Source: a virus (lineage: Duplodnaviria; Heunggongvirae; Uroviricota; Caudoviricetes). From it: a stretch of 64,000 bases of DNA. The stretch is taken from IMG/VR virus record IMGVR_UViG_3300043467_001216; one strand, written 5' to 3'. The notes beneath the pieces were generated by a model. It was not told the origin of the DNA. It was given only the letters and a program-made list of their open reading frames with translations, and made no database searches. The translations under genes were made by a program, and so were the position numbers. Shown here one piece after another: positions 11,088 to 61,545 of the stretch (position 1 is the first letter of the stretch; every line of letters begins with the position of its first letter).

Positions 11088-11114
11088 AACCCCCAAGACC
11101 TGGGGGTTTTTTAT
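11088..11114 (+). terminator. intrinsic terminator AAACCCCCAAGACCTGGGGGTTTTTTATT
   Basis: GC stem plus a T-run after the stop of the 10787..11083 gene. Confidence 0.8.
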
Positions 11115-14714: not shown

Positions 14715-14745
14715 AACCCCCAATTAAATGGGGGTTTTGTTTTAA
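14715..14745. terminator. bidirectional intrinsic terminator AAAAAACCCCCAATTAAATGGGGGTTTTGTTTT between convergent genes
   Basis: The stem is flanked by an A-run and a T-run. Confidence 0.75.
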
Positions 14746-23618: not shown

Positions 23619-24539
23619 ATGATAGATACTTTTAACATAAATGACGGTAGTTTAAACAACCAAGTGTTCAACTATAATGGGAATACAGGGTGGCAAGTAT
23701 GGAACAAACCACCTAAATGTAATTTAGTGAATTTCTTTTTAGTTGGTGGTGGTGCCGGTGGTCAAGGTGGTATTATTAATTCTGCCGCCAATCGTAATGG
23801 AGGTGCGGGAGGTGGTTCTGCCGCCTTTTCATATATAACCGTTCCAGCATTTGCAATTCCCGATACTTTATATATATTAGTGGCAAGTGGTGGAACAGGA
23901 GGTGCGTCAAGTGGTGGTGCCGGTGGTCAAGGAAGTCTTAGTTATGTCTGTTCTGTACCTGATACGTCAACTGTTAATAATATATTAATGAGGAGTGGTT
24001 CGGCGAATGCGGGTGTTACAACAACAACAACTGCGGGTGCGGCAATTACTGTTGCGGATATTTTATTAGCTGAGGCTGCGTTTATTTCAGGATATGCGGG
24101 TCAAACAGGTGGTGCGGGTGGTGTAACAAGTACTCCTGCGGTTGATATAACACCAACAGGTATTCCATTCACATCAGGTGCGGGTGGTGCTGGATGTGGT
24201 TCGACAGGAACGTTAGGTGTTGCGGGGGATATCGTAGGTATTTTAGATTTCCCAATTATCTCAGGTGGTACAAATACATCATCGGCAGGTGCGACTGCGG
24301 GTTCGGGAAATAACGGATTTTCGACAAGAGAAAGTTTTACTAGCCAAAATTATAAATATCCTATGTTCTTTACAGGAGGTGCCGGTGGTGGTGCAGCCTC
24401 TAACGCAACAGGTGTTGGAGGACGTGGTGGTGATGGAGCCTATGGTTGTGGTGGAGGAGGTGGTGGTGCCGGTGGAAACACAACTGCGGGACGTGGTGGT
24501 GATGGTGGTCACGGATTAGTTATAATTACAGTTACATAA
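23619..24539 (+). CDS. glycine-rich protein, tandem paralog 1
   Basis: Conserved N-terminus MIDTFNINDGS..QVF...WNKP..C..V.F.L.GGG and conserved C-terminus AYGCGGGGGGAG..GGDG..VIIT. The Gly-rich middle is highly variable. Confidence 0.55.
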   Translation: MIDTFNINDGSLNNQVFNYNGNTGWQVWNKPPKCNLVNFFLVGGGAGGQGGIINSAANRNGGAGGGSAAFSYITVPAFAIPDTLYILVASGGTGGASSGGAGGQGSLSYVCSVPDTSTVNNILMRSGSANAGVTTTTTAGAAITVADILLAEAAFISGYAGQTGGAGGVTSTPAVDITPTGIPFTSGAGGAGCGSTGTLGVAGDIVGILDFPIISGGTNTSSAGATAGSGNNGFSTRESFTSQNYKYPMFFTGGAGGGAASNATGVGGRGGDGAYGCGGGGGGAGGNTTAGRGGDGGHGLVIITVT

Positions 24540-24542
24540 AAT

Positions 24543-25487
24543 ATGATAGATACTTTTCACATATCAGATGGTAGTGTCAATAGACAAGTGTTCTATGCGA
24601 CAGGACCGAATACCTTCCAAACTTGGAATAAACCCCAAAACTGTAAATTCGTTTACTTCGTATTAATCGGAGGTGGCGGAGGTGGCGGAGGTGGTCAAAG
24701 TGGTGGAACAGGAACCTCTCGTAGAGGTGGTGGTTCAGGTGGTTCAGGTGGATTAACTAAAGGTATGTTTCCCTCTTCAATTATTCCTGATAGATTATAT
24801 ATTCAAGTTGGTTCAGGTGGAACTGCTGGTGTTGGTGGTACGACTAACAGTGATGGTGGTACTGCTGGTATATCATATGTTATGGTTACACCTGACACTA
24901 CTGAAACTGCACAAAATATACTACTACAAAGTAGTTTGGCGGCTGCGGGTGGTGGTCGTTCAGGTTTAAATGGTGGTGCTCTTGGTGCTGCTGCAACGGC
25001 TTGGGTATTCACTAATAATATTTTTTATAAATTTGGGTTGGTTGATACTTATGCGGGTCAAGCGGGTGTTTTAGGTCAAACAACGGCATTACCAACTAAC
25101 TTAACAATTAGTGGTATTGTAAGTGGTGGTGGTCCAGGTGCGGGTCAAAACGGTGCAACTGCACAAGAGGGTGGTTCAGTTGTTGGTGGTGGGTCAATAC
25201 CTACAATGACAGGAGGACCAGCGGGTGGTTCAGCGACATCAACAACACCCGGAGGTAATGGTAGTGGTGGATATATGACATTTACCCCTAACACACTTGG
25301 ATACACAACAGAACCATTGATATTTATCGGTGGTGCTGGTGGTGGTTCATCAGATGGTGGACCCGGAGGTTCAGGAGCTGGCGGAGCCTATGGTTGTGGT
25401 GGTGGAGGAGGTGGAGCCGGAATAACTAACCAAGGTGGTAATGGTGGTAAAGGTGGTGACGGAATAGTCATAATAACGTGGTGGTAA
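24543..25487 (+). CDS. glycine-rich protein, tandem paralog 2
   Basis: Same architecture as paralog 1. Ends GGDGIVIITWW. Confidence 0.55.
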   Translation: MIDTFHISDGSVNRQVFYATGPNTFQTWNKPQNCKFVYFVLIGGGGGGGGGQSGGTGTSRRGGGSGGSGGLTKGMFPSSIIPDRLYIQVGSGGTAGVGGTTNSDGGTAGISYVMVTPDTTETAQNILLQSSLAAAGGGRSGLNGGALGAAATAWVFTNNIFYKFGLVDTYAGQAGVLGQTTALPTNLTISGIVSGGGPGAGQNGATAQEGGSVVGGGSIPTMTGGPAGGSATSTTPGGNGSGGYMTFTPNTLGYTTEPLIFIGGAGGGSSDGGPGGSGAGGAYGCGGGGGGAGITNQGGNGGKGGDGIVIITWW

Positions 25488-25496
25488 TATTATAAA

Positions 25497-26459
25497 ATGA
25501 TAGATACATTCAATTTACCTGGAAAGGAAAGGTATACACAAATTTTTACAGTAAACTCAAGTGGGTCAACAGGTTGGGAAACTTGGAATAAACCATCAAA
25601 CATTTCTTACATCCATATTTTATGTATTGGTGGTGGAGGAGGTGGAGGAGGGGCTCGTGGTAGTTCGCTGAATACCGCAACAGGAGGAGGTGGTGGAGGT
25701 TCTGCAGCTCACTCAATTGGATTATTTCCTGCGGTTTTATTACCTGATACATTATTCGTTCAGGTGGGTAAAGGAGGTGCTAGTGGTGTTGGTGGTGCTA
25801 AGGGTGTTAACGGAACTGATGGTGGTTCGGGAGAACATTCTTATGTGTCAGTTATACCATCAACGGGAACTACTGCGGTATTGATGAAAAACGGTACTGC
25901 GGGTGCTGATGGTGGTAATGGTGGACAAAGTTCAGTTCAAGGTGCTGCGGGAACTGCGGGAACAACTTGGACTTATAACACAACATTTATATTTCCCCAA
26001 TTAGGACAGATATCACCATTTGCTGGTCAAAATGGTGGTATCGGTGGTTCAACAGGTGGTGGTAATGGTGGTTCGATAACTATTACAGGTCCAACAACAG
26101 GTGGTGGTGGTGGAGGTGGAACAACAAGTGGTGGCTCATCAGGTGGTGGTGGTTCAATTACGGGTGTTGGGATAATACCAACTATTGTTGGTGGAACTGC
26201 GAATTCATTAACGGCTAGTAATGGTGCGGGTGGTTATGGTATGAATTTATTAACAACTGAATCAAGTTCACCAAGTCCTTTATTTTTTACGGGAGCTGCG
26301 GGTGGTGGTGGTGCTGGTCCAAATGCTGATAGAGAAGGTGGTGACGGAGGTCACGCTGCTTACGGTTCAGGAGGTGGAGGTGGAGGTGCATCTTATAATG
26401 GTAAAGGTGGTGACGGAGGTAAAGGTGGTGATGGTGTTGTAATTATTACTTGTTGGTAG
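25497..26459 (+). CDS. glycine-rich protein, tandem paralog 3
   Basis: Same architecture. Ends GGDGVVIITCW. Confidence 0.55.
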   Translation: MIDTFNLPGKERYTQIFTVNSSGSTGWETWNKPSNISYIHILCIGGGGGGGGARGSSLNTATGGGGGGSAAHSIGLFPAVLLPDTLFVQVGKGGASGVGGAKGVNGTDGGSGEHSYVSVIPSTGTTAVLMKNGTAGADGGNGGQSSVQGAAGTAGTTWTYNTTFIFPQLGQISPFAGQNGGIGGSTGGGNGGSITITGPTTGGGGGGGTTSGGSSGGGGSITGVGIIPTIVGGTANSLTASNGAGGYGMNLLTTESSSPSPLFFTGAAGGGGAGPNADREGGDGGHAAYGSGGGGGGASYNGKGGDGGKGGDGVVIITCW

Positions 26460-31936: not shown

Positions 31937-32170
31937 ATGAAAAGTTGGTTAAATTTAAGTAGTAATGGTTGGTTGGTATTGGCCTCTACGATTGTCTACA
32001 TCAGTGTCCTTACAATAATATTTGAATATGTTATTAGTAGAGAATTTCCGATGTTCTTACAAATGATATCAGTGTTTTTTGGGTTATTTTACACTGTGTC
32101 TCAATTAAAAATAATATCCAAATATGTTATAAATTTATTTAATTTTAAAGAAAAAGAAGAAGAAGTATGA
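31937..32170 (+). CDS. small membrane protein
   Basis: Two hydrophobic helices. Confidence 0.4.
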   Translation: MKSWLNLSSNGWLVLASTIVYISVLTIIFEYVISREFPMFLQMISVFFGLFYTVSQLKIISKYVINLFNFKEKEEEV

Positions 32171-33069
32171 TTACAATTATTTTATTAGTATTGTCATTGG
32201 TTGTTGCAGGTGTAATGATTTTTAGAGGTGTTGCGAATGATGACACTGTGAGTTTAAGAAACGGGATTATCGTTGGTGTATTGGGGATTGTTATCTCATT
32301 AATTCAACCATTCTCAACAGAACGAGTGGATACAGGTAACGTTGGTATCAAAGTTAATTTAACAGGTGATGCTCGTGGTGTATCGAAGTATGAGTACAAA
32401 ACAGGTTGGGTAGTTTATAACTCTTGGACTGAAACAATGTATGAGTTCCCTGTGTTCCAACAACACATTGAGTATGGTGACCAAATGGTGATTACTAAGG
32501 GTGGATTTACCACAACTATTAACCCTACGTTTAACTACAAATTGAAATCTAGTACAGTTGGGGATATGTTCCAAAACTTGAGATTACCGATTAAAGAAGT
32601 GGAGCAAGGATGGTTGAAAAATGCAATCGTTGGAGCGGTGAATGACGTGGCGAATACTTGGTCTGTCGATAGTATCTTTAACCACCGTGAAAATTTCGAG
32701 TCTAATATCGTAGTCGAATGTAATAAACGATTGATTAAATGGTTTGACGTATCTCAGTTGAGAACTAACATTACACCTCCTGAGGCATTACAAGAATCAA
32801 TTATCGCAAAAACAAGAGCCATCCAACAAGCGGAAGCATCTAAACAACAAGCAATTGCTGCTCAGGCTGATGGTCAACGTAAAGTTGCGGTTGCAAAGGC
32901 TGACTCCGCAGAGACTGTTATCAACGCATCCGCTAAGGCGAGAGCGATGGATTTAACACAACAAAAGTTAACACCTTTGTATGTTGAATATAAGAAAATT
33001 GAGAAATGGGATGGTCAATTACCTTCAACAGTTGCGGGTGGAACAGGAACATTCTTGAATATAAAATAA
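32167..33069 (+). CDS. SPFH/band-7 (prohibitin-like) membrane protein
   Basis: N-terminal TM helix. C-terminal Ala/Gln-rich coiled region (AIQQAEASKQQAIAAQADGQRKVAVAKAD) typical of the SPFH family. Confidence 0.5.
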   Translation: MITIILLVLSLVVAGVMIFRGVANDDTVSLRNGIIVGVLGIVISLIQPFSTERVDTGNVGIKVNLTGDARGVSKYEYKTGWVVYNSWTETMYEFPVFQQHIEYGDQMVITKGGFTTTINPTFNYKLKSSTVGDMFQNLRLPIKEVEQGWLKNAIVGAVNDVANTWSVDSIFNHRENFESNIVVECNKRLIKWFDVSQLRTNITPPEALQESIIAKTRAIQQAEASKQQAIAAQADGQRKVAVAKADSAETVINASAKARAMDLTQQKLTPLYVEYKKIEKWDGQLPSTVAGGTGTFLNIK

Positions 33070-34455: not shown

Positions 34456-34977
34456 ATGGAATATCCCCAAGTTAATTTCAATCAGGTGTTTGTGGACCAC
34501 CGAGGAACATTCACTCCACTATCTTTAAATTCCTACGATAAGGAATGGTTACAAAGTAACATTAGTATTAACCCCCAAATGTTTACTCTAAGAGGTTTAC
34601 ACTTCCAAGTTGGGGATAAGGCTCAGTCCAAACTAATTAAGGTGATTACAGGGTCTATTGTTGATTTCATAGTTGATATTCGTGAGGATTCACCTGAGTA
34701 TATGAAATTGTATCATTATAATATGGTGTCGGGTTCTGAATTACTAGTACCGAGGGGTTTTGCTCACGGGTTTATGACAACGCAACCAAATACGGTAGTT
34801 CAGTATTTAGTTGACAATGTTTATTCACCCGAATCGGAAGGGTCGATTTATTGGAAAGAGATTGAAGGGTTGTACGATGTGTTGAATTTTGCGTCATATT
34901 TTAAAGAATTAGAAGATGAAGACATTATAATGTCGGTTAAAGATTATAAAACTATAAATTTTAAATTAAACAAATAA
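34456..34977 (+). CDS. dTDP-4-dehydrorhamnose 3,5-epimerase-like cupin (RmlC family)
   Basis: RGLHFQ...QSKLIKV.TGSIVDFIVDIR..SP.......S.....L.VPRGFAHGF matches conserved RmlC blocks. Confidence 0.6.
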   Translation: MEYPQVNFNQVFVDHRGTFTPLSLNSYDKEWLQSNISINPQMFTLRGLHFQVGDKAQSKLIKVITGSIVDFIVDIREDSPEYMKLYHYNMVSGSELLVPRGFAHGFMTTQPNTVVQYLVDNVYSPESEGSIYWKEIEGLYDVLNFASYFKELEDEDIIMSVKDYKTINFKLNK

Positions 34978-37678: not shown

Positions 37679-37683
37679 AAAAA

Positions 37684-37707
37684 CCCCCAAGATAGGGGGT
37701 TTTTCTT
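37684..37707. terminator. bidirectional terminator AAAAAACCCCCAAGATAGGGGGTTTTTC between convergent genes
   Basis: A/T-flanked GC stem. Confidence 0.75.
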
Positions 37708-39526: not shown

Positions 39527-39837
39527 TGAAATCAATCGGTCAAATTTTTAGAAGTAATAGACAATTAATGGATGAACCTGAAGTTCAGGTGTTAATAGAA
39601 TATTGCCGTGAATTGGAAGGGCAAGTTATGGATAGAAAGATTGATGATAATTACGATAAGGAACACGTTCTACGTAGTATGTTAAAGGACATTAGAACAG
39701 GTATTGATGACACATTAAAAGACGACGAGGAATCAATCAGGTTCAATGAAACACCAAGAGTTGATTTCAAAGATGCTATGTTGAATTTGAAAAAATTCCT
39801 TGCCGAAATGTGTTTAATTAACAAAATTATTTTATGA
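39526..39837 (+). CDS. hypothetical protein
   Basis: ORF. Confidence 0.4.
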   Translation: MKSIGQIFRSNRQLMDEPEVQVLIEYCRELEGQVMDRKIDDNYDKEHVLRSMLKDIRTGIDDTLKDDEESIRFNETPRVDFKDAMLNLKKFLAEMCLINKIIL

Positions 39838-40220
39838 AGAAAAGAGTTTATTTAGTCGATATTGATGGGACTATCTGTGATGATATAAAGAATGAAGAGA
39901 GTCATTTATATCCTGACGCTAAAGTATATGATGGTGCTTTAGAAGAATTAAATAAGTTGTATGATGAAGGTAATATAATTACATTCTTCACTGCCAGAGA
40001 AAGTAAAGACCGTGAGGTTACGGAAAAGTGGTTGAACGATAATGGGTTCAAGTATCACGGATTAATCACTGATAAACCAAGAATCAAAGATGCTCAGGAG
40101 TATGTTTGGATTGATAACATTCCAATCAGAGGTATTACCTATAAAGGTAAGTGGTCACCAATCATTGAGAAACAATTATTCTGTGATGAGGTGAAATCAA
40201 TGTTGATGTTTAAGAAATGA
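39834..40220 (+). CDS. HAD-superfamily phosphatase-like protein
   Basis: N-terminal motif I LVDIDGTI (DxDGT). Confidence 0.5.
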   Translation: MKKRVYLVDIDGTICDDIKNEESHLYPDAKVYDGALEELNKLYDEGNIITFFTARESKDREVTEKWLNDNGFKYHGLITDKPRIKDAQEYVWIDNIPIRGITYKGKWSPIIEKQLFCDEVKSMLMFKK

Positions 40221-44176: not shown

Positions 44177-44205
44177 AACCCCCAGGTAAAATTGGGGGTT
44201 TTTTA
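44177..44205 (+). terminator. intrinsic terminator AAACCCCCAGGTAAAATTGGGGGTTTTTTATT
   Basis: After the 42508..44172 gene. Confidence 0.8.
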
Positions 44206-47104: not shown

Positions 47105-47359
47105 ATGGCAGCAATTACAATGAGTGAGGTGAAGATAGGTAGAACAACATATCCTGTTAAGAGTGGTGATTATATTTTATATAATGGTGCTTGTTATCAG
47201 TTTATAGCTGGTGATGGTAGAACTTTGAAACAAGAAGGTTTTACCGGTTATAGTAATTTGAAAATGCCTATGACATTAATTAAGAAAATACCGTTCATCA
47301 GAATGACAAAAGTTAGTTTCAATAAAAATGGGGTGGATTTAGTAAAATGGTATTTCTAA
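47105..47359 (+). CDS. hypothetical protein
   Basis: ORF. Confidence 0.4.
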   Translation: MAAITMSEVKIGRTTYPVKSGDYILYNGACYQFIAGDGRTLKQEGFTGYSNLKMPMTLIKKIPFIRMTKVSFNKNGVDLVKWYF

Positions 47360-47685
47360 ATATAAGGATTACCAAACTCTTTTAAACTATTAAACATATC
47401 TTCGATACGTTTACATTCTTTAATGAAGTTAGATGCAATCTCAGGGGGTAATTGGAACCATTCAGTTCCCCCTTCCAACAAATACTTAAAGTAATCTCGT
47501 TTCATTACCGTTTCAATTTTTGTGTAGTATTCTGATTGGTGTTTACGTAGTAAGACTAACTCGTGAGGGTTTGAAGTCTGATGGGCTTTTAGTCTTAATT
47601 GGGGGTCATTTTTTGAGATACCGATTTTATATCGTTCAGGTTCGGAACCCCATTCAACTATTAGATATACATAACCATAATCCAT
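47356..47685 (-). CDS. T5orf172/MUG113 (GIY-YIG-like) domain protein
   Basis: YVYLIVEWG....YKIGISKNDPQLRLKAHQTSNPHEL matches the T5orf172 signature. Confidence 0.5.
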   Translation of the reverse strand: MDYGYVYLIVEWGSEPERYKIGISKNDPQLRLKAHQTSNPHELVLLRKHQSEYYTKIETVMKRDYFKYLLEGGTEWFQLPPEIASNFIKECKRIEDMFNSLKEFGNPYI

Positions 47686-50754: not shown

Positions 50755-50976
50755 ATGAAGAAAAAAGATTTCAAATTCAATACAAAAGAACGTAAGTCAG
50801 TTAACGCAGACTTAAATGATTTCTGTTATTTGGCAAAACCTCACGACTTCATTGAAGTTACTGATTGGTCCAATCTTGATGGTTATGATATCACATTAAA
50901 TGATAAACATATCTCATTAACAAGAGGTGAGTTGGATGCAATTAAAGCGTTAGTTAAAAAATTAAATAAATTATGA
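50755..50976 (+). CDS. hypothetical protein
   Basis: ORF. Confidence 0.35.
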   Translation: MKKKDFKFNTKERKSVNADLNDFCYLAKPHDFIEVTDWSNLDGYDITLNDKHISLTRGELDAIKALVKKLNKL

Positions 50977-51458
50977 ACTTATACGAAACATATCTTAATA
51001 CTAAATCATCAGGTTCAGTTGAAGATAGAATTGAGGTGATGAACGACATCATCAGACAAAATCCTAAGTTAATGGATTATATTGAAACCAAGATTGATTC
51101 CTGTTATGGGACTCACATTGTTTACTTGGTTAATATGAGGGTTAACGGTGAAGATATGTTGAAGATAGGTTATACCAAGAATTCTGTTGATGGTAGATTT
51201 GGTGAACATAGATATGCCGGTAGAGATAGTTTGGAGATTGTTGAGAAAATCCGAGAAGGTAAGTTACAAGCCAAAGGTGCGATTGAGTTTGAGAAATCAC
51301 TAAAAGAGAAGTTTAAAGACTTCAAAATCACGACTGATTTAACACTACCTGGTAAAGGTGAATTTTATGACATCGTATTCTATGATGAAATGATAAGGAT
51401 ATACGACGAAGAATATCCCAAATTTATAAATGTTATCGGTTTAAAGTCCCCTAATTAA
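50973..51458 (+). CDS. T5orf172/MUG113 (GIY-YIG-like) domain protein, second copy
   Basis: THIVYLVNMRVNGEDMLKIGYTKNSVDGRFGEH matches the T5orf172 signature. Confidence 0.45.
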   Translation: MNLYETYLNTKSSGSVEDRIEVMNDIIRQNPKLMDYIETKIDSCYGTHIVYLVNMRVNGEDMLKIGYTKNSVDGRFGEHRYAGRDSLEIVEKIREGKLQAKGAIEFEKSLKEKFKDFKITTDLTLPGKGEFYDIVFYDEMIRIYDEEYPKFINVIGLKSPN

Positions 51459-51479: not shown

Positions 51480-52028
51480 ATGAAAGTTATAATTACGGAA
51501 TCTAATTTAAAATATGTGATATTCAGATATTTTGATAATCAAAAAAGTAAAGGTCAACAACCTTATGTAAGTAGTAGACTGTATAAATTATTTAAAAGTG
51601 ATGAAGACACTTTGTTGGATTACTTATTTGATTACCTTGGTGGTAGAGACGGTGCTACTGAGGTTGCTAAAAAAATGTTAAAAGAATTACCTGATAGGAT
51701 TAAAATAAATGATGCACAATTTGAGGGTGAGTTTTATTATTCAATCTATGATGTAGGTAGTGAGATTAACCCATATGATGGTTATTTACCTGTGTTTATA
51801 GATTGTTATGGTGATGTTAATGGTGCTCCTGTATGGAATGATGATAATGGAGATTACGATTATATTGATACTACATTATATGATTGGTATTCGGAGTTGG
51901 ATATGACTGAAGGTTGGGAAGTAAAAGATACTTTTGTTTCAGATATTAATGGTCAATTTTTTGATTTGATAACACGATATACGGGTGTACCAATTAATGT
52001 TGAAGGATTCTCAGTAATTGATGGATAA
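51480..52028 (+). CDS. hypothetical protein
   Basis: ORF. Confidence 0.45.
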   Translation: MKVIITESNLKYVIFRYFDNQKSKGQQPYVSSRLYKLFKSDEDTLLDYLFDYLGGRDGATEVAKKMLKELPDRIKINDAQFEGEFYYSIYDVGSEINPYDGYLPVFIDCYGDVNGAPVWNDDNGDYDYIDTTLYDWYSELDMTEGWEVKDTFVSDINGQFFDLITRYTGVPINVEGFSVIDG

Positions 52029-52035
52029 AAAATAA

Positions 52036-52059
52036 ACCCCCTTAATTGGGGGTTTTTTG
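52036..52059. terminator. bidirectional terminator AAACCCCCTTAATTGGGGGTTTTTTG
   Basis: Between the 51480..52028 gene and the convergent 3D-domain gene. Confidence 0.75.
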
Positions 52060-52581
52060 TTATAGTTTACATAGAAGAATATCGTTGAATTTATATTGGG
52101 GAGTTCCTTCAGTTTCAAGGATGTCAATTCTATTAACATATCGTTTATTCATTGTGTCGGTTACTTTATACACACCTGATTTTTTACCAGCATTAGTAAT
52201 CAAAACCTCATCACCATAATCAAATTGACCTCCCCATCTTTTTAATAAGTTACGACTCATAGCAATCCATTTATGTTGACTTGCTTTCTTTGGGTTTATC
52301 TTATACATTCCCGCAGTTACCAATGGGTCCTTATCACATTGTTTGATTACCGGGTAATACATTGTTGCGGTTAAATGTTTCAAAACCTTTTTACTTTTCT
52401 TCAAGGTTTTAAACTGCATAGTTACCTCAACTGATTTAGGTTTCTCAACCTTAACAACTTTTTGTGTTTTGTGTTTTTCATTTAATTCCTTGGCTAAGTT
52501 CATCATATAGACTACATAGGAATGGTAATACATACCTAACACTAAAATAATTGCCGATTTAAAAAGTTCTTTCACATTCAT
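52060..52581 (-). CDS. 3D-domain cell-wall-binding/lytic protein (membrane-anchored)
   Basis: N-terminal TM helix. C-terminal 3D-domain-like block IAMSRNLLKRWGGQFDYGDEVLITNAGKKSGVYKVTDTMNKRYVNRIDIL. Confidence 0.5.
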   Translation of the reverse strand: MNVKELFKSAIILVLGMYYHSYVVYMMNLAKELNEKHKTQKVVKVEKPKSVEVTMQFKTLKKSKKVLKHLTATMYYPVIKQCDKDPLVTAGMYKINPKKASQHKWIAMSRNLLKRWGGQFDYGDEVLITNAGKKSGVYKVTDTMNKRYVNRIDILETEGTPQYKFNDILLCKL

Positions 52582-52676
52582 ACGTTTTATATTTAAGGGT
52601 TACGAATACGAAGATAGTTAATATTTAAAATTTGGGGGTCTTTTAATTTCCGAAATAAATTACTATAATTAGAGAT

Positions 52677-53063
52677 ATGAGTAGAGTTAATTTGATTGCA
52701 TCAACAGGGTTAATCTTCAATGAAGATAAGTCAATGGTATTAGGTGTGTCACGTAAAGACGATAAAACTAAATTTGGTTTACCTGGTGGTAAGGTTGATG
52801 AAGGTGAAACAATGTATGAAGCATTGGTTAGAGAGTTGAAAGAAGAAACAGGATTGGATGTTATTAAGGCGGTCCCGATATATTTCAGAGAAGATGGTAT
52901 ATACGTGACCGTGGTTTATTTGATTAGTGAATATTCAGGTGATATATATACAGAAGAGGCCGGTGTCGTTAAATGGGTTACATTTGAAGAATTGAAACAC
53001 GGGGCGTTCTCAGAATACAATACAATGTTGGAGGAACATTTGAAATTTATAAATTATATATGA
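52677..53063 (+). CDS. Nudix hydrolase
   Basis: Nudix box GLPGGKVDEGETMYEALVRELKEETGL (Gx5Ex7REUxEExGU). Confidence 0.75.
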   Translation: MSRVNLIASTGLIFNEDKSMVLGVSRKDDKTKFGLPGGKVDEGETMYEALVRELKEETGLDVIKAVPIYFREDGIYVTVVYLISEYSGDIYTEEAGVVKWVTFEELKHGAFSEYNTMLEEHLKFINYI

Positions 53064-53818
53064 ATATGAAGAAATTAATTTATTTTACATTAGGTAATAA
53101 TCCAAATTACTTAAAATTGGCTGATATGTGTATTAACAGTTTATATCATAATGGTTATGATGGTGATTTTTTATTTATAACTGACTTAAAGAATGAGATT
53201 TTAAACCAAATCAATTTTAAAACTCAACCTTATTTTTTAGAATTAAAAGAATCTTCATTGTTAGAATCGTCGGCGAATAAACTTAAAGTTTATTCATTTA
53301 ATAAAATAAATGAATATGATAAAATTATATTTTCAGATTTAGATATTTTATGGGTGTCGAACCCTGAAATAATTTTTAATCTTATTGATGAGGATAAATT
53401 TTATATGAGTAATGAAGAAGGGTTAATGACTGATGAATTATGGGGTGGTTTGTTGTTAACTGATACTGAAAAAATTGAAATTGACCAATTGAAAATTTTT
53501 GGGTTAAATTGTGGTCTATTTGCGTTTAATAACAAAATGATACCGTATTTAGAGCAGGTTGATTTATTTTTGAATAATAATTTAGAGTTACAAAATGTGT
53601 GTTTAGAACAACCATTTTTGAATGTTTATGTTTATCGTAATAATTTATATAATAATAAATTGAATGGTTTGGTTAGTCATAAAGGTTATCATTTTGTTAA
53701 TTCACCTTTAGATTTAATCAAATATGATGGTGTTGTTTTACATTTTGCAGGTGGTCCTGGTAATTATGATTTTAAATATGAAAAAATGTTGATTTATTTT
53801 AACGAATATTTTAAATAA
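53060..53818 (+). CDS. putative glycosyltransferase (GT-A fold, DxD)
   Basis: IIFSDLDILW DxD-type motif and GT8-like layout. By eye only. Confidence 0.5.
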   Translation: MNMKKLIYFTLGNNPNYLKLADMCINSLYHNGYDGDFLFITDLKNEILNQINFKTQPYFLELKESSLLESSANKLKVYSFNKINEYDKIIFSDLDILWVSNPEIIFNLIDEDKFYMSNEEGLMTDELWGGLLLTDTEKIEIDQLKIFGLNCGLFAFNNKMIPYLEQVDLFLNNNLELQNVCLEQPFLNVYVYRNNLYNNKLNGLVSHKGYHFVNSPLDLIKYDGVVLHFAGGPGNYDFKYEKMLIYFNEYFK

Positions 53819-53830
53819 ATAACGTGTTAT

Positions 53831-54031
53831 ATGTTGGTTGAGGGGGAATATAATTATGCTAAACTAATTACTATTGAAGGTGATGTTGTCGCGGTTGCGG
53901 TTATGGAAGTAGGTTCAGAGAATGAAGCTGGTGTTGTTAATTGGGCTTTAGATAATGATTTCACCTTAGTTAAGATTGACGAACAAGAGTTTTTGGATTT
54001 TGAAAGTGATTATGATATTGAACTTGAATAA
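53831..54031 (+). CDS. hypothetical acidic protein
   Basis: ORF. Confidence 0.3.
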   Translation: MLVEGEYNYAKLITIEGDVVAVAVMEVGSENEAGVVNWALDNDFTLVKIDEQEFLDFESDYDIELE

Positions 54032-54069
54032 AATTTTCACTCAGGTGTTGTGCATATCCAAAAGATAGT

Positions 54070-54077
54070 TATATTTG
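54070..54077 (+). promoter_or_regulatory. TATATTTG -7-like promoter element driving the ORF-free ncRNA candidate
   Basis: TAnnTTTG followed by an ORF-free 220-nt region and a terminator. Confidence 0.4.
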
Positions 54078-54084
54078 TAGTGTG

Positions 54085-54307
54085 TGAGTGTCACACAGGA
54101 TGTCAGAACTCCTAACTTACAATCTGACCATTAAGTATCAGGTGAGATGATACGGGTTGATTACCCCAACTTAGTAAGTGAAACCATCAGGATGTCAGAA
54201 CTCCTAGTTCACAATCTGACCACTAAGAATCGGGTGAGGCGGTTCGGGTTAAACACCTCAATCCAAAGGATGAAATTTAAACCCCCAAGTACATTGGGGG
54301 TTTTTTG
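54085..54307 (+). ncRNA. candidate structured ncRNA with its own promoter and terminator, containing two tandem ~70-nt homologous units
   Basis: No ORF. A TATATTTG -7 motif sits at 54070-54077. A 5' hairpin GTGTGA-gtg-TCACAC opens the transcript. Units at 54096-54166 and 54188-54258 share AGGATGTCAGAACTCCTA..ACAATCTGACCA.TAAG.ATC.GGTGAG..CGGGTT.A..ACC. Each unit forms GTCAGA/TCTGAC and GGTG/CACC helices. An intrinsic terminator lies at 54279-54307. Confidence 0.5.
54279..54307 (+). terminator. intrinsic terminator AAACCCCCAAGTACATTGGGGGTTTTTTG ending the ncRNA candidate
   Basis: Stem plus a T-run. Confidence 0.8.
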
Positions 54308-54328
54308 TTTTATCTAATATTTATTGAT

Positions 54329-54805
54329 ATGAAAATAATATTAACTGAGAATAAGTTAGATAAAATAATTGAAAAATATGGTATAGTTAAAACCATTAGA
54401 AATATTGGTGGGTATAAAAATTTTGATAAAATATACCCTGATTATTTTTATTCAGGTGATACATCACAATGGGATAGAGAACGTGTTATTAATTTTTTAA
54501 ATGAATGTGTTGAGGTTAATAACAGAATAGAAAATGAATCAAGTATTTATCTTCACGACTATTGGGAAGATATCTTATATCAAAGTTGGAGTGATTATAA
54601 TGAAGATGCTGGTAGAGAGTTTCAGTATGAATCTAGAATAATGTCTATTAGTACTGATTTTGCACATACTGAAGTGTGGCAATATGATGAGGAAGGTGAA
54701 ATGTTTGATGAAGCTTACGATTATAATGATATACCTTTGAATAGATTGGAAACTAGGTTTTTAAGTAAAATATTTGGGCAACTTTGGGGGGTATTTAAAT
54801 TATGA
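54329..54805 (+). CDS. hypothetical protein
   Basis: ORF trimmed to the ATG downstream of the terminator at 54279-54307. Confidence 0.4.
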   Translation: MKIILTENKLDKIIEKYGIVKTIRNIGGYKNFDKIYPDYFYSGDTSQWDRERVINFLNECVEVNNRIENESSIYLHDYWEDILYQSWSDYNEDAGREFQYESRIMSISTDFAHTEVWQYDEEGEMFDEAYDYNDIPLNRLETRFLSKIFGQLWGVFKL

Positions 54806-55278
54806 AGTTATTAAAATTATTATCGACATTAATTACTGAGAGTAGGTTATTTGACAGATTTGTTGTCAACGGTCTTGTTGTTGATGTAACCAGCACTCGT
54901 GAGTCTGATGTTGCGGTAATGGATAATACAACATTCGGTAGAGTTCCCAAAGAAGAAATATTAGAATCAATGAGAGATATCATTGAAGTTATTGTAACAC
55001 AAGGATTGGTGGTATTAGATACTTGTGAAAGAAGATGTGGTTTATTAGTAAGTGATTATTCAATGGGGTTCGATTACCAACTTTGGGTAACATTGAAGAC
55101 TAATAAATTAGAATTGAAAATTAACACATCAATCAAACATCCAAAACAATTATTTAACGATAAACACAAAACAAGACGTGTTATCGTAACTAGAGACGGT
55201 GAGACCGTTATCAGAGAATCATTAGAACATTATCGTTCAGTTAAAATCGGAAAAAAAATCGTTTATTTTATAGACTAA
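54802..55278 (+). CDS. hypothetical protein
   Basis: ORF. Confidence 0.4.
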   Translation: MKLLKLLSTLITESRLFDRFVVNGLVVDVTSTRESDVAVMDNTTFGRVPKEEILESMRDIIEVIVTQGLVVLDTCERRCGLLVSDYSMGFDYQLWVTLKTNKLELKINTSIKHPKQLFNDKHKTRRVIVTRDGETVIRESLEHYRSVKIGKKIVYFID

Positions 55279-55337
55279 ATCGTAAATTATCTATAACTTT
55301 AGTCATAAAAGAAATTTTAGATTAAATACTAACGATT

Positions 55338-55535
55338 ATGAATAAGCATAGAATTAACATTATCAACAAACAGAGTAGTAGGTTGATACATAAGAACCAC
55401 TTAGATAGTTGTTTAGAACATTTATCAATCGCTCACTTTCACTTATCAAAACATCTTAAAGGTAAGAATGATATGGGGTTATTGACTAACATATTGAACT
55501 CATCTTTTGAGATAAAAAAACATTTAAAACGATGA
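55338..55535 (+). CDS. hypothetical protein
   Basis: ORF. Confidence 0.3.
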   Translation: MNKHRINIINKQSSRLIHKNHLDSCLEHLSIAHFHLSKHLKGKNDMGLLTNILNSSFEIKKHLKR

Positions 55536-55958
55536 ATGGATAAAAAGATTGGATTTACGTGTTCCTGTTTTGATTTATTTCATGCGGGACATATTATGAT
55601 GCTTAAAGAAGCTAAAAGTGTTTGTGATTACTTAATAGTTGGTTTACAGAGTGACCCCACGTTAGACAGACCTGAGAAGAATAAACCTGTTCAAAGTATA
55701 GTTGAAAGATTTATTCAATTGGATGCTTGTAAGTATGTTGATGAGATTGTGGTTTATGCGACAGAAAAAGATTTAATGGACGTATTGTTATCGTATCCAA
55801 TCAATGTTAGGATTGTTGGGGATGAATACGCTGAAGTTAATTTTACAGGTAAAAACTTACAACATATTGAAATTTATTATAATACAAGACGACATTCATT
55901 TTCAACAACAGAATTAAGAAAACGAGTAATTGAATTATCAAATGGACAAAGTAAGTGA
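55536..55958 (+). CDS. HxGH-motif nucleotidyltransferase (cytidylyltransferase/NMNAT-like)
   Basis: GFTCSCFDLFHAGHIMMLKEAK matches the (T/H)xGH nucleotidyltransferase motif of TagD/RfaE-II/NadM-like enzymes. Confidence 0.6.
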   Translation: MDKKIGFTCSCFDLFHAGHIMMLKEAKSVCDYLIVGLQSDPTLDRPEKNKPVQSIVERFIQLDACKYVDEIVVYATEKDLMDVLLSYPINVRIVGDEYAEVNFTGKNLQHIEIYYNTRRHSFSTTELRKRVIELSNGQSK

Positions 55959-56478
55959 TATATTGGTTAAACAATTTTCCTTGTCGGATGAGTTTAAAGA
56001 TTACATTCAAGATAATATTAATAATTCAGGTTGTTCTAACATTGAATTTTTAGAATTTAATAATGGTTTGTTTGGTGTTTCATTACACGATGGTATAATA
56101 CTAAATGATACGTTGTTAAAATATCCATTATCGTTATGTATTTTCATAATACTACACGAATTAACACACCAATTACAATTTAATAAATATGGTGTTGACA
56201 AGATGTATCTTTATTTAAATGATGTGAGTGATGATGAGGTTAGTGAATTCATTTTAAAACAAGAAATCGTTGCTGATAGATTGGCATCACTGAAAATACG
56301 TCAATTACAAAAGAAAGGTTTAATTAGTAAAGATTTTACACCAATACAGATTCATAAAAAGGTCGACCCAAAACTCTTTAAACAAAAGATTGTAAATTAT
56401 AGAAACCTGATGAGAGAACAAAACGTTAGAACACCTGACGATGTTAGTTGTTTTTTTAAATCATTAATATTATATTAG
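55942..56478 (+). CDS. putative HEXXH zinc metallopeptidase-like protein
   Basis: IILHELTHQLQ (HExxH). Confidence 0.45.
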   Translation: MDKVSDILVKQFSLSDEFKDYIQDNINNSGCSNIEFLEFNNGLFGVSLHDGIILNDTLLKYPLSLCIFIILHELTHQLQFNKYGVDKMYLYLNDVSDDEVSEFILKQEIVADRLASLKIRQLQKKGLISKDFTPIQIHKKVDPKLFKQKIVNYRNLMREQNVRTPDDVSCFFKSLILY

Positions 56479-56482
56479 TAAA

Positions 56483-57196
56483 ATGAAAAAGAAAATTGTT
56501 GTATTCACAGGTGCTGGTGTTTCAAGAGAAAGTGGTGTCTTGACATTTAGAGATAGTGTGGATGGGTTATGGGAGAATCATAGTATTGATGATGTTTGTA
56601 CACCTTCAGGATGGAAAAAAGACCGTGAGAAGGTTTTGAATTTTTATAACGATAGACGAAGACAATTACCTACGGTTGAACCTAACTCAGCCCACACAGG
56701 TTTGGTTAAGTTAGAGGACAAATATGACGTAACAATCGTTACCCAAAATGTTGATGACCTACACGAAAGAGCGGGTTCATCTAAGATATTACATTTACAC
56801 GGTGAGTTGACTAAAGCCAGAGGTGCGATGTATAGTCATAAGACAAGTCCATTGGATAATATCGTGGTGATTGGTTATAATGATATTAACATTGGTGATA
56901 AGTGTGAGATAACAGGTTCACAGTTGAGACCCCACATTGTTTGGTTTGAAGAGATGCCATTCAACGTCGAGGAAAGTTATGACGCAATAACCGAATCTGA
57001 TGTGTTAATCATTATCGGAACTAGTTTGATGATTGGTTACACATTAAATCTATTATCAAGTGTTAGTGATGAGTGTAAGATTTATTATATTGACCCCCAA
57101 CCAAGTAGGTATTTGGACCATTTAGGTAAAGATATTACTTACATTGAGAAACCGGCAACGGAAGGTGTTGAATTAATTTTAAATGAATTGTTATGA
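56483..57196 (+). CDS. Sir2-family (sirtuin-like) NAD-dependent protein
   Basis: VVFTGAGVSRESGVLTFRD, QNVDDLHERAG and HLHG Sir2 blocks. No obvious Zn-ribbon Cys tetrad. Confidence 0.75.
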   Translation: MKKKIVVFTGAGVSRESGVLTFRDSVDGLWENHSIDDVCTPSGWKKDREKVLNFYNDRRRQLPTVEPNSAHTGLVKLEDKYDVTIVTQNVDDLHERAGSSKILHLHGELTKARGAMYSHKTSPLDNIVVIGYNDINIGDKCEITGSQLRPHIVWFEEMPFNVEESYDAITESDVLIIIGTSLMIGYTLNLLSSVSDECKIYYIDPQPSRYLDHLGKDITYIEKPATEGVELILNELL

Positions 57197-57600
57197 AAAG
57201 AAATATACCTGATATGAAGAACCAATTGTTGTTCTATATGGATAAGTGGGGTGAAAAAGGAAACAAGTCTGACCGAACACCTGAAAAGTATGAGGAAACT
57301 ATGATTAATCTTGAGAAGAAGATTGAGAAGGATATGATTGAGGTTTTATCTAAAATGGGGATTAATGCCAGTGTTAAGACTGATAGATATTCATTACCAC
57401 ATCAGTTTCAAATTAAAACTACACAATACGGAGAATCATATTTGAATGGGGCATTCGAATCTGTTAAATTATATCGTGCGGTTTTAAAAGAAATGACTAC
57501 TTTGAATTTATATAAAATTAGATTTTATATTTTAGCCGAGGTCGAAGATTGTTTACCTATAGGTAAGGTTAATTATTACTTCAATTATTATATTCACTAA
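57193..57600 (+). CDS. hypothetical protein
   Basis: ORF. Confidence 0.4.
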   Translation: MKRNIPDMKNQLLFYMDKWGEKGNKSDRTPEKYEETMINLEKKIEKDMIEVLSKMGINASVKTDRYSLPHQFQIKTTQYGESYLNGAFESVKLYRAVLKEMTTLNLYKIRFYILAEVEDCLPIGKVNYYFNYYIH

Positions 57601-57613
57601 AAACAAATAAAAA

Positions 57614-57973
57614 ATGAAAAAATTAACATATCACGAAATTAAAGAACGTGAACTGAAAGTTGTTGAGAAGTATGATGACAAAGATTTCGATAGGTATATT
57701 AAATTATTAATACTTGCTAAAAAAATCTTCTCTGAAAAAATATTATGGGTTGTTAGTTTCATACCCTTTTTAATTATTTGGGGGATATTTTATTTATTTG
57801 GAGCCATTAAATTAGATTTACCAACTATCATCACTTTTGTTATTTCACATATGATATATTGGATATTTGCTGGTAAGAAAAGTACTCAAAAATTGATTAA
57901 TAATGTTGTTCCCGAATTAGAAATGGTTATTGATGCGATAAAAGAAATTAAAGAAGAACGTTTAAAAAAATAA
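57614..57973 (+). CDS. membrane protein
   Basis: Two TM helices. Confidence 0.4.
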   Translation: MKKLTYHEIKERELKVVEKYDDKDFDRYIKLLILAKKIFSEKILWVVSFIPFLIIWGIFYLFGAIKLDLPTIITFVISHMIYWIFAGKKSTQKLINNVVPELEMVIDAIKEIKEERLKK

Positions 57974-57977
57974 TATT

Positions 57978-58466
57978 ATGTCAATAGATTTAGATAACCT
58001 CAAAAAACATATTGAGGAATTAAATAAAAAAACTGAAGCGATGATGCAAACTCCTGAGTGGGAAGAATATGCTAAATTAAAAAAAGATTTTGACGGGTTT
58101 GTTTCTCATATGAAACAACGAAGAATTGATAAACTATACACATACGTGATTGGTTTAATCAACGATTCAAGTTCATATGAGGTTAAAGTACGTAGACCTG
58201 CGGAAGATAAGATTGAGGAATGGTTGGAACGTCTTGATGGTCACAGAAGTAATTTATATCGTAATGGTCTTAAAAAAGGTTACATTGCTTGTGAATCTAA
58301 CGCTTTAGATTTATTGTGGGAAATGTTCAGTAAGTATGGTCTAAAAAGTGATTATTCTGACACTTTTACCGATGCCGCTTATACTCTTAATATCTACACA
58401 ATGGAAATGTATTCAGGTCAAGGTGAATATGGTTATCACATACATAAATTAACACAGGTATTATGA
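57978..58466 (+). CDS. hypothetical protein
   Basis: ORF. Confidence 0.4.
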   Translation: MSIDLDNLKKHIEELNKKTEAMMQTPEWEEYAKLKKDFDGFVSHMKQRRIDKLYTYVIGLINDSSSYEVKVRRPAEDKIEEWLERLDGHRSNLYRNGLKKGYIACESNALDLLWEMFSKYGLKSDYSDTFTDAAYTLNIYTMEMYSGQGEYGYHIHKLTQVL

Positions 58467-60271: not shown

Positions 60272-60371
60272 TAGTCAGGTGGCGTAATGGTAAAAGCGTT
60301 GGTCAGTGGGTTTAAACACCTAACGGTAAAAATGGGTACCAGATATACAGGTTCGAATCCTGTCCTGACTA
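60272..60371 (+). tRNA. tRNA-like element 1 (Leu-type D-arm; shared termini AGTCAGGTGGCG ... ACAGGTTCGAATCCTGTCCTGACT); 100 nt
   Basis: Acceptor AGTCAGG/CCTGACT (7 bp). T-arm ACAGG-TTCGAAT-CCTGT. D-arm GCG-TAATGGTAAAAG-CGT. The interior is longer than a class II tRNA. Confidence 0.45.
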
Positions 60372-60441: not shown

Positions 60442-60553
60442 GAGTCAGGTGGCGGAATTGGTAGACGCTAACGGTGGTAAGTGTGATAGTCAGAGCTCGG
60501 GAACTCCTATCAAAAAGTTTGGTTCACACATACAGGTTCAAGTCCTGTCCTGA
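60442..60553 (+). tRNA. tRNA-like element 2 (D-arm GGTGGCGGAATTGGTAGACGC identical to canonical tRNA-Leu); 112 nt
   Basis: Same termini as element 1. The 63-nt region between the D- and T-arms includes a long hairpin GTGTGA...TCACAC. No canonical anticodon arm found by eye. Confidence 0.45.
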
Positions 60554-60569
60554 CTACTAAAAATAAGAT

Positions 60570-61460: not shown

Positions 61461-61530
61461 AAGCGGAGTAGTGTAATTGGTAACATATTGGATTGTCTCC
61501 TTTGATGTGGGTTCGAGTCCCATCGCCGCA
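61461..61530 (+). tRNA. candidate tRNA (T-arm GTGGGTTCGAGTCCCAT, D-loop AATTGGTAAC)
   Basis: tRNA-like D- and T-loops. The acceptor pairing is imperfect by eye and the isotype is undetermined. Confidence 0.35.
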
Positions 61531-61545
61531 ACTAAAATTTAAATT

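Follow-up and report, generated by a model that had tools for sequence, protein, structure and literature searches.

The 64,000-nt stretch of phage DNA analysed here (IMG/VR record IMGVR_UViG_3300043467_001216, hereafter the window) contains, between positions 52677 and 57196, five genes that encode a Nudix hydrolase, a glycosyltransferase (GT), an HxGH nucleotidyltransferase (NT), a protein with an HEXXH motif and a sirtuin (Sir2). A first-pass annotation had taken them for a cluster in which Sir2, Nudix and NT might counter host defences through NAD metabolism or, alternatively, NT and GT might serve a nucleotide-sugar pathway. We conclude, with a probability of roughly 0.7, that the five genes are independently acquired, strain-variable accessory genes lying in a mosaic region and do not form one NAD or sugar pathway. 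The genes appear to be independently mobile because their co-occurrence is confined to one lineage, the GT gene varies between strains and a terminator lies between them. Judged by sequence comparison, they lie side by side in a single species-level lineage only, and their clustering in the window is coincidental.

The window has a low GC content (∼30%) and almost all of its genes lie on the + strand. Megablast of positions 52000-58000 against GenBank phages gave zero matches, so there is no annotated close relative. The source is an uncultivated huge phage whose genome spans 310 kb or more, since a protein identical to the window GT is encoded on a 310-kb metagenomic contig, an identical Sir2 protein was found on metagenomic contigs of the 0.2-1 Mb class, and the nearest GenBank matches to Sir2 are megaphage assemblies of 460-640 kb labelled ‘uncultured phage’. 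Eleven + strand open reading frames (ORFs) occupy positions 52677-57600. All five enzyme-like ORFs of the first-pass annotation were recovered in place, and its domain calls held for Nudix, GT, NT and Sir2.

To compare gene neighbourhoods, 80 viral contigs around relatives of Sir2 and 80 around relatives of NT were retrieved with flanks of up to 10 kb, all window ORFs were searched against them and the ORFs were clustered. Only one contig among these 160 loci, IMGVR_UViG_3300008261_000100 (L004/L084), carried both Sir2 and NT, its proteins being 84-100% identical to those of the window. In the related loci L005, L006 and L009, the Sir2 proteins are 94%, 89% and 82% identical to that of the window, and Nudix, GT and NT are missing within 10 kb. 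There, Sir2 follows closely on a homolog of the minus-strand gene at 52060-52581, with one or two ORFs in between (a signal-peptide protein of 194-202 aa, plus a 128-aa ORF in L006) that the window does not have. These three loci encode an HEXXH homolog, 38% identical and 5-8 kb away, and homologs of GT and of the RmlC-like protein of the window were found in none of the 160 loci. A single gene is retained just 3′ of Sir2 throughout L004-L009; it encodes a 135-aa protein (ORF135; homologs 76-87% identical), which abuts Sir2 in L004, L005 and L009 and lies ∼400 nt downstream, after another ORF, in L006-L008. We considered whether ORF135 had diverged from the small proteins encoded after Sir2 in other phages (DUF3127, cluster 7) and discarded the idea, as hhalign gave a probability below 1%. 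The signal-peptide gene, of ∼195-200 aa, stands directly 5′ of Sir2 in L005 (9391-9999), L006 (9415-9999), L008 (9212-9799) and L009 (9391-9999), a position that in the window is filled by the NT and HEXXH genes.

Variation between close strains was most evident at the GT gene, which is precisely absent from L004/L084 (flanks 96-98% identical), so that Nudix is directly followed by a 66-aa ORF (ORF66); L085 is devoid of both GT and ORF66. The presence/absence site, just 3′ of Nudix, corresponds to 53060-53818 in the window, 7179-7184 in L004 and 8314-8432 in L085, and it looks like an insertion hot spot. Upstream of the cluster are two genes of T5orf172/MUG113 type (GIY-YIG-like), probably homing endonucleases, at 47356-47685 (−) and 50973-51458 (+); their location at the upstream flank of the variable region fits a mosaic structure. 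A possible paralogy between 51480-52028 and 54305-54805 was barely supported and was dropped (BLAST, first 17 residues only, E 0.011).

The genes are also split at the level of transcription. The window has six copies, compared with zero expected, of a hairpin of the form ACCCCC-(6-10 nt)-GGGGGT with a T-run behind it, and all but one of them are found only a few bases past an ORF end. The copy at 54281 is placed 250 nt past ORF66, after a pair of repeat units, and Rfam leader and terminator models align to this hairpin (54279-54303). The recurring hairpins thus appear to be the phage's own type of intrinsic terminator; the copy at 52034-52055, between convergent genes, is bidirectional. With a terminator at 54279-54303, Nudix and GT fall in a different transcription unit from NT, the HEXXH gene and Sir2: a first unit would comprise Nudix, GT and ORF66, and a second one three ORFs followed by NT, the HEXXH gene, Sir2 and ORF135. 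The GT start overlaps the Nudix stop, the HEXXH ORF overlaps the end of NT and the ORF135 start overlaps the Sir2 stop. Because their stops and starts overlap or are 4 nt apart, NT, the HEXXH gene, Sir2 and ORF135 are almost certainly co-transcribed. The three ORFs at 54329-55535 are lineage-specific and are rearranged in L006 and L009.

Sir2 is the sole NAD-dependent component among the five enzymes. It matched PF02146 (E 1.9e-38) and, in the PDB, E. coli CobB (1s5p, 1.6e-46) ahead of archaeal Sir2-Af1 and human SIRT5; identity is 46% to the CobB core, 38% to the sirtuin of KVP40, 36% to those of T5-like phages and 31% to that of rV5. Scores against the NCBIfam CobB equivalogs remained under the cutoffs (NF001755, 186.5 bits vs 318; NF040867, 153.6 vs 320). 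The NAD-binding and catalytic motifs G10-A-G12, F22-R23, T87-Q88-N89-x-D91, H106-G107, R149-P, F155-x-E157 and G179-T-S are 90-100% conserved among 82 clade members. Y55-N-D-R58 aligns with F-Y-N-A-R of CobB, the Y being kept in 75 and the R in 78 of the 82 members; this Y-x-x-R pair we take to be that of Y102/R105 in SIRT5, which forms the acidic-acyl pocket of class III enzymes. The GAGxS, FR, TQNxD, His-Gly, GTS and Y-x-x-R motifs are thus shared with E. coli/Salmonella CobB and human SIRT5 (1s5p, 6rxj, 2b4y), from which the phage-encoded protein differs in lacking the four-Cys zinc site. As the first-pass annotation had noticed, the zinc cysteines are missing; C139 alone aligns with one of the four in CobB, and a Cys-poor insert of ∼35 residues replaces the site. 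The loss extends well beyond the window, as all 80 phage relatives keep only zero to two of the four cysteines, and the KVP40, rV5 and T5-like sirtuins are without the set too. A structural zinc site of four cysteines is canonical for sirtuins (PMC8603916), and in a literature look-up for zinc-free sirtuins we met only this canonical description. Taken as a whole, Sir2 looks like a CobB-type class III enzyme, predicted to be active, with a zinc-free small domain, and not like a NADase effector.

Sirtuins are common in phages: 1022 phage records matched Sir2 at E < 1e-5. Those of KVP40-, rV5- and T5-like phages, and the ‘viral sirtuin clade’ (PMC9503650), resemble the window protein in being homologous, zinc-less and encoded by large or jumbo phages, in some lineages with NAD/ADP-ribose or RNA-repair genes nearby; they differ in their identity of 31-38%, in a change of TQN to TTN or TAN and in a deletion in the small domain. 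The best GenBank match (54%) is in the megaphage LR745206, which we rejected as a syntenic relative, the common genes within 16.7 kb being Sir2 and a Dam methylase alone. In LR745206 the Dam-type methyltransferase also adjoins Sir2.

In more distant relatives Sir2 sits in a conserved gene island. In ∼30 loci on contigs of up to 368 kb, with Sir2 proteins 50-67% identical to that of the window, gene order is kept over ∼17 kb (from about −9 to +9 kb around Sir2, itself at ∼10001; loci L010-L036, L038-L040, L045, L047-L049, L055, L058, L059, L063 and L064). The order begins with a metallophosphoesterase, an AAA ATPase, NadM, NadV, NADAR, Macro, a HAD_SAK phosphatase, a dCMP deaminase, a HAD-like protein and two small ORFs; it continues with Sir2, DUF3127, a small ORF, Prs, a Thg1-family protein, a 528-aa metallophosphoesterase, a HAD-like protein, a Nudix protein and a nucleoside deoxyribosyltransferase-like protein. 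These assignments come from Pfam: NAMPT_N and NAPRTase for NadV (4.5e-41), Pribosyltran_N for Prs (3e-33), NADAR (1e-47), Macro (2.3e-9), CTP_transf_like plus NUDIX for NadM (the NMNAT-Nudix fusion type), Thg1 of the tRNA 5′-end repair family (6.4e-30), HAD_SAK_2 or ‘Swiss Army Knife RNA repair’ (6.2e-22) and Nuc_deoxyri_tr2 for the deoxyribosyltransferase (1.7e-33). At least one of NadV, NadM, Prs, NADAR and Macro was present in the fetched flank for 27 of 65 distinct Sir2 proteins, as against 0 of 79 NT loci. The island is not universal, given that in KVP40, where NAD salvage is proven, Sir2 is not near NadV or NatV. Links of phage sirtuins to NAD/ADP-ribose and RNA-repair genes in jumbo phages have already been predicted bioinformatically (PMC7824862, PMC9503650); the particular conserved arrangement in which genes for NAD salvage, ADP-ribose processing and Thg1/HAD_SAK repair surround Sir2 is a new, modest point.

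Sir2 would consume NAD+, by protein deacylation or by removal of an RNA 2′-phosphate, and release nicotinamide and an ADP-ribose derivative. Macro or NADAR would then strip the acyl group or phosphate to leave ADP-ribose, Nudix would split this into AMP and ribose-5-phosphate, Prs would make phosphoribosyl pyrophosphate, NadV would join it to nicotinamide and NadM would adenylate the resulting nicotinamide mononucleotide (NMN) to NAD+. The island would in this way provide a chemically complete return path for either Sir2 mechanism. In the window phage Sir2 stands outside such an island, within 64 kb at least. It is conceivable, if rather doubtful, that the zinc-less Sir2 of huge phages is the NAD+ consumer of a self-contained phage NAD cycle run with the island, and that the window Sir2 has left the island, perhaps for a new partnership with the cytidylyltransferase (NT) and the zincin (the HEXXH protein).

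As for the reaction itself, we lean towards protein deacylation, tentatively and at somewhat less than even odds, because the protein is close to CobB and has kept the Y-x-x-R pocket. The strongest competitor would make Sir2 an analogue of the NAD+-dependent RNA 2′-phosphotransferases (KptA/Tpt1-like) acting in RNA or tRNA repair, and not a deacylase. We know of no sirtuin shown to have RNA 2′-phosphate activity, and the window Sir2 resembles CobB more closely (46%) than it does the sirtuins of rV5 and T5-like phages (31-36%), in which the Y-x-x-R pocket and TQN that it retains are altered. Pfam and PHROG scans found no RNA ligase, 2H, cREC, HAD_SAK, kinase or calcineurin-like phosphoesterase gene beside the window Sir2. 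Yet such a role has been proposed for the main viral sirtuin clade by Iyer et al. 2022 (PMC9503650), and the setting of the island favours it because of the Thg1, HAD_SAK and phosphoesterase genes (Thg1 6e-30 and HAD_SAK 6e-22) that flank Sir2; moreover, the rV5 Sir2 adjoins RNA ligase 1 and a phosphoesterase, and Macro could process ADP-ribose-1′′-phosphate. Taken together, RNA repair by the window Sir2 seems unlikely to us, less so than any other alternative to deacylation or to independent acquisition of the genes.

The first-pass annotation had made its NAD reading depend on the class of NT. NT matched PF01467 (E 4.3e-15; 56.5 bits vs a cutoff of 21) and phrog_7878 (6.5e-37), and it carries H16-A-G-H19 and R118-x-H-S-F-S-T-T, the latter equivalent to RTxGISTT; within the family R118, H120, F122, S123 and T124 are invariant, S121 is conserved in at least 90% and the final T is replaced by S in some members. 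Among the NCBIfam models, the generic cytidylyltransferase domain TIGR00125 was matched above its cutoff (58 bits vs 27.7), RfaE domain II (TIGR02199; 68.3 vs 181.5) and TagD (TIGR01518; 59.8 vs 165.4) were matched below theirs, and those for NMN adenylyltransferase (NMNAT) and NadR gave only ∼16 bits. When a profile of 14 family members was searched against all PDB sequences, human ethanolamine-phosphate cytidylyltransferase (ECT) gave E 4e-28, TagD 1.2e-15 and 5e-14, choline-phosphate cytidylyltransferases (CCT) ∼5e-8 and an archaeal RfaE-like protein 4e-6, compared with 0.04-0.05 for NMNAT structures and 0.5 for NadR. Since cytidylyltransferase profiles and structures far outscore NMNAT and NadR, sequence evidence places NT firmly in the alcohol/sugar-phosphate cytidylyltransferase class and not among the NMN adenylyltransferases, and the NMN/NaMN adenylyltransferase, one of the two functions first suggested for it, has to be given up. 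The TagD and RfaE-II equivalog cutoffs were missed so widely that this placement is one of class, with no specific family member. TagD (1coz), ECT (3elb), CCT and RfaE/HldE II have in common with NT the HxGH and RTxGISTT-type motifs, a length of ∼130-140 aa and PF01467; NT differs from them in scoring far under the equivalog cutoffs and in standing alone, with no partner pathway genes. It would use CTP or ATP to activate an alcohol- or sugar-phosphate, giving a CDP- or ADP-product.

At least 8000 metagenomic protein clusters match the NT family, which JGI names glycerol-3-phosphate cytidylyltransferase, and 138 GenBank phages carry it as TagD, RfaE or cytidylyltransferase; the ‘TagD’ names at JGI and GenBank are automatic. 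Virome papers treat the gene, without biochemistry, as a ‘TagD’ auxiliary metabolic gene of cyanophages and marine viromes (PMC12801897, PMC11515562). In 44 of the 80 NT loci, the immediate neighbours of NT are a late sigma factor resembling gp55 on one side and gp47/gp46 (Mre11/Rad50-like) on the other; UvsW and a peptide deformylase are close by, and there are no sugar or NAD genes. This arrangement, in which the genes were identified by eye and from T4 gene order, is the core of aquatic T4-like phages. For the same genome pairs, median identity is 75-76% for NT compared with 51% for gp47, 58% for gp46, 63% for UvsW and 69% for gp55. NT appears to be under strong constraint and to work alone on a substrate supplied by the host. 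The window NT is up to ∼80% identical to the copies of aquatic T4-like phages, and in 11 T4-like NT loci a Nudix copy 63% identical to that of the window lies 4.6-7.6 kb downstream of NT. These shared identities suggest that NT and Nudix have been exchanged with aquatic T4-like phages, and the two genes may have reached the huge phage from them. DnaJ, encoded at 7285-8208 and co-occurring with NT in 21 loci, was examined as a clue to NT function and set aside, being an ordinary DnaJ whose distance and orientation vary in T4-like phages.

GT matched in Pfam only GT8, below the cutoff (E 1.8e-3; 18.4 bits vs 24.3), and had no PHROG family and no match in the PDB sequence search. We found 146 metagenomic homologs, some fused to TylF/Methyltransf_24 (sugar O-methyltransferases), and an AlphaFold2 (AF2) model built with an alignment of 31 of them reached a pLDDT of 94.8; D93-x-D95 is invariant in these 31. 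The best Foldseek matches of the model were the ABO transferases of GT6, glycogenin of GT8 and WbbM (E ∼1e-9, probability 1.0), and we assign GT, on this predicted structure, to the retaining GT-A glycosyltransferases of GT8/GT6-like type. It resembles glycogenin, LgtC (GT8), ABO (GT6) and WbbM in fold (probability 1.0, TM ∼0.6), in the DxD motif and in a C-terminal H-F-x-G, and differs from them in a sequence identity of 10-14%, the sub-cutoff Pfam GT8 score and the missing PHROG family. As a class, such enzymes would use a UDP-sugar as donor and transfer its sugar with the configuration retained.

NT, GT, the RmlC-like cupin at 34456-34977 and HAD phosphatases could be imagined to form a nucleotide-sugar or glycan/DNA-modification pathway, as the first-pass annotation had offered as its alternative. 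The parts are real: NT belongs to the sugar/alcohol-phosphate class, GT is a genuine GT-A enzyme with some homologs fused to sugar O-methyltransferases, RmlC matches PF00908 (1.4e-34) and a HAD phosphatase is encoded at 39834-40220. The pathway is not borne out. The strain that is 96-98% identical keeps NT and lacks GT; GT or RmlC occurs in 0 of the 79 other NT loci and in no Sir2 locus; in T4-like phages NT has gp55 and gp47 for neighbours and is accompanied by no sugar genes; a terminator separates GT from NT; and RmlC, a lone dTDP-sugar epimerase, lies 18 kb away with no RmlA, RmlB or RmlD near it. The chemistry does not join up either, as retaining GT-A enzymes of GT6/GT8 type use UDP-sugars as donors and not the CDP-alcohols made by TagD/ECT-type enzymes. 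We consider a shared sugar pathway quite improbable.

Nudix matched PF00293 (E 8.6e-18; 65 bits vs a cutoff of 21) and the MutT/NUDIX family phrog_1198 (1.9e-22), and its Nudix box is complete: G38-x5-E44-x7-R52-E53-L-K-E56-E57-T-G59-L60, following GX5EX7REUXEEXGU. MutT was the best NCBIfam model (6.6e-15), at 55 bits under the equivalog cutoff of 98, and MutT proteins were the top PDB matches (best 4v14, 8.5e-10); the NadM-type (1e-6 to 4e-3), NudE (1.5e-5) and NAD diphosphatase (3e-4) models all scored far under their cutoffs. With E. coli MutT (1mut) and 4v14 it shares the minimal form of 128 aa, the complete Nudix box and the best profile and PDB match, the score of 55 bits against the 98-bit cutoff being the difference. 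Nudix thus appears to be MutT-like, not of the ADP-ribose pyrophosphatase or NadM type, and nothing specifically indicates ADP-ribose, contrary to the ADP-ribose or NAD-derivative pyrophosphatase proposed initially. It probably sanitises a substrate of the nucleoside-polyphosphate type (nucleoside-diphosphate-X, as in MutT).

These assignments bear directly on the idea that Sir2, Nudix and NT make up a counter-defence module that regenerates NAD+ depleted by Sir2, TIR or SEFIR effectors or destroys ADP-ribose-derived signals. Sirtuins consume NAD+ and do not make it. NT is of the cytidylyltransferase class (NMNAT E 0.04), Nudix is MutT-like and encoded in a different transcription unit from NT, and the trio occurs together in one lineage only. 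Moreover, NadV, NadM, Prs, Macro and NADAR were all missing from the 64-kb window in searches with hidden Markov models (HMMs) and in tblastn with NadV, NadM and Prs of related loci, as were NadV, Namat, Adps, PnuC and NadR. On the other side, phages do rebuild NAD+ by NARP1, NARP2 and NARP3, which are experimentally established (PMC13464706; PMC9503650); NadM/NatV brings a Nudix and an HxGH nucleotidyltransferase domain together, and orthologous Sir2 genes adjoin NadV and NadM. The island of related phages, with NadV, a NadM-type NMNAT-Nudix fusion and additionally Prs, is like NARP2 (NadV plus NadM/NatV), NARP1 and NARP3, from which the window differs in having no NadV, NadM, Prs, PnuC or NadR and in NT and Nudix being of other subfamilies. 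Of the link between Sir2 and NAD metabolism first proposed, what stands is the neighbourhood of the orthologues (NadV, NadM, Prs, NADAR, Macro, Nudix); the combination of Sir2, Nudix and NT does not extend beyond one species-level lineage, and we hold an NAD-regenerating module in the window to be very improbable.

Some observations nevertheless weigh against the independent acquisition of the five genes. In L005, whose Sir2 is 94% identical to that of the window, NadV lies 8.6 kb upstream of Sir2, which also speaks for the NAD module just discussed. NadV, NadM or similar genes may lie outside the 64-kb window, in a genome of at least 310 kb. A Nudix gene is also present in the Sir2 island of related phages, but it is of a different subfamily (HMM E 4.6e-10, vs 4e-75 for the T4-like type). 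NT, the putative zincin, Sir2 and ORF135, being almost certainly co-transcribed, may have a lineage-specific functional link. Finally, the loci were picked by similarity to the query proteins, so that the frequencies given above are not population estimates.

Defence Sir2 domains are likewise without the zinc module. Sir2 domains are common among the effectors that deplete NAD, and Sir2-HerA is encoded by some phages (PMC9503650), but a NADase or toxin like ThsA, DSR or Sir2-HerA, serving defence, superinfection exclusion or abortive infection with its neighbours as partners, is scarcely credible here, as the window Sir2 matched no PADLOC defence Sir2 model at E <= 0.01, is most similar to the housekeeping deacylases CobB and SIRT5, is a single domain of 237 aa with no sensor or partner, fused or adjoining (no HerA, SLOG, TIR or Macro), and belongs to a clade conserved in lytic-type large phages beside NAD salvage genes.

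The HEXXH protein, annotated at first as peptidase-like, has only six database homologs. H76-E77-x2-H80, E112 and D116 are invariant in nine homologs, E112 and D116 being candidates for the third zinc ligand. The motif was thus upheld, and the fold proved only weakly zincin-like: Pfam SprT/YgjP was matched at E ∼0.03, the AF2 model was of low confidence (pLDDT 62.8), and the top Foldseek matches were minimal zincins (jannalysin, selecase, abylysin, SPRTN, PprI) that did not reach significance (E 0.2-3). The protein is a probable small zincin metallopeptidase, which as a class would cut a peptide bond.

In the non-coding gap of 270 nt after ORF66, the stretch 54032-54278 holds two 74-nt direct repeats (54096-54169 and 54188-54261) that are 81% identical. 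In relatives the unit is single-copy, with 85-88% nucleotide identity in L006 (16585-16657) and L009 (14020-14092), as against 30-70% for the neighbouring proteins, and it is found in four further contigs (L169, 3464-3560; L170, 4023-4120; L172, 2291-2390; and L173). A terminator always follows. The unit is predicted to fold into three or four hairpins, whose 20 pairs include 7 with compensatory changes. It matched no Rfam family, nor was a tRNA predicted, and we regard it as a candidate phage small RNA of ∼80 nt. This repeat element probably also accounts for the 56-aa ORF at 54147-54317, which would then be spurious. The coordinates of the features of the locus are collected in Table 1.

Table 1. 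Predicted genes and RNA elements of the locus, with the hairpin copies found throughout the window
Feature	Position	Strand	Basis
Nudix hydrolase, 128 aa, minimal MutT-like, complete Nudix box	52677..53063	+	PF00293, phrog_1198, MutT PDB
Predicted retaining GT-A glycosyltransferase (GT8/GT6-like), 252 aa, strain-variable	53060..53818	+	AF2 model and Foldseek
66-aa ORF (ORF66)	53831..54031	+	No Pfam/PHROG match; homologs in L004 and L009; absent from L085
Two 74-nt direct repeats, candidate structured small RNA, duplicated	54096..54261	+	Repeat comparison, compensatory changes
Predicted intrinsic terminator, 10-bp C5/G5 hairpin and T-run	54279..54303	+	Terminator scan
Three ORFs with no family assignment	54329-54805, 54802-55278, 55338-55535	+	No Pfam, PHROG or PADLOC matches
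HxGH nucleotidyltransferase, cytidylyltransferase class (TagD/ECT/CCT/RfaE-II), 140 aa	55536..55958	+	PF01467, phrog_7878, PDB profile
Lineage-specific HEXXH protein of 178 aa, probably a minimal zincin metallopeptidase	55942..56478	+	Invariant motif, weak fold evidence
Class III (CobB/SIRT5-like) sirtuin, 237 aa, motifs intact, no four-Cys zinc site	56483..57196	+	PF02146, CobB 1s5p
135-aa ORF (ORF135)	57193..57600	+	No Pfam/PHROG match; kept just 3′ of Sir2 in close relatives
ACCCCC..GGGGGT hairpin copies	11089-11107, 14716-14735, 37683-37700, 44178-44199, 52036-52053, 54281-54301

Elsewhere in the window, ARAGORN called a single tRNA, tRNA-Thr (61462-61532). Two Rfam tRNA matches, at 60273-60371 (99 nt, 49.5 bits) and 60443-60556 (114 nt, 35.5 bits), are absent from the ARAGORN calls and might represent tRNAs that carry an intron or a long insert. 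Three tandem paralogs of 306-320 aa (glycine-rich, PF21722) at 23619-26459 form the sole GC-rich stretch (46% vs ∼30%). Accessory genes include, besides the full-length DnaJ, a Dam-type N6-adenine DNA methyltransferase (8505-9344) and an SPFH/Band 7 protein (32167-33069).

Phage sirtuins, phage NAD pathways and ‘TagD’ genes are already known, and nothing in the locus amounts to a system of a new kind. A new, modest point is that the zinc site has been lost throughout a clade of phage sirtuins that are CobB-like and intact in other respects: these phages carry a CobB-like clade without a site usually held to be a structural requirement of sirtuins. The clade offers a concrete target for work on the role of phage sirtuins, one of which is carried by more than 1000 sequenced phages. 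The NT family, in turn, ranks among the top ‘auxiliary’ genes of aquatic phages in both conservation and abundance, under a ‘TagD’ name given without evidence. More generally, comparison of close strains and of related phages reveals the independent movement of genes, and the case warns against inferring pathways from adjacent enzyme domains in the genomes of huge phages.

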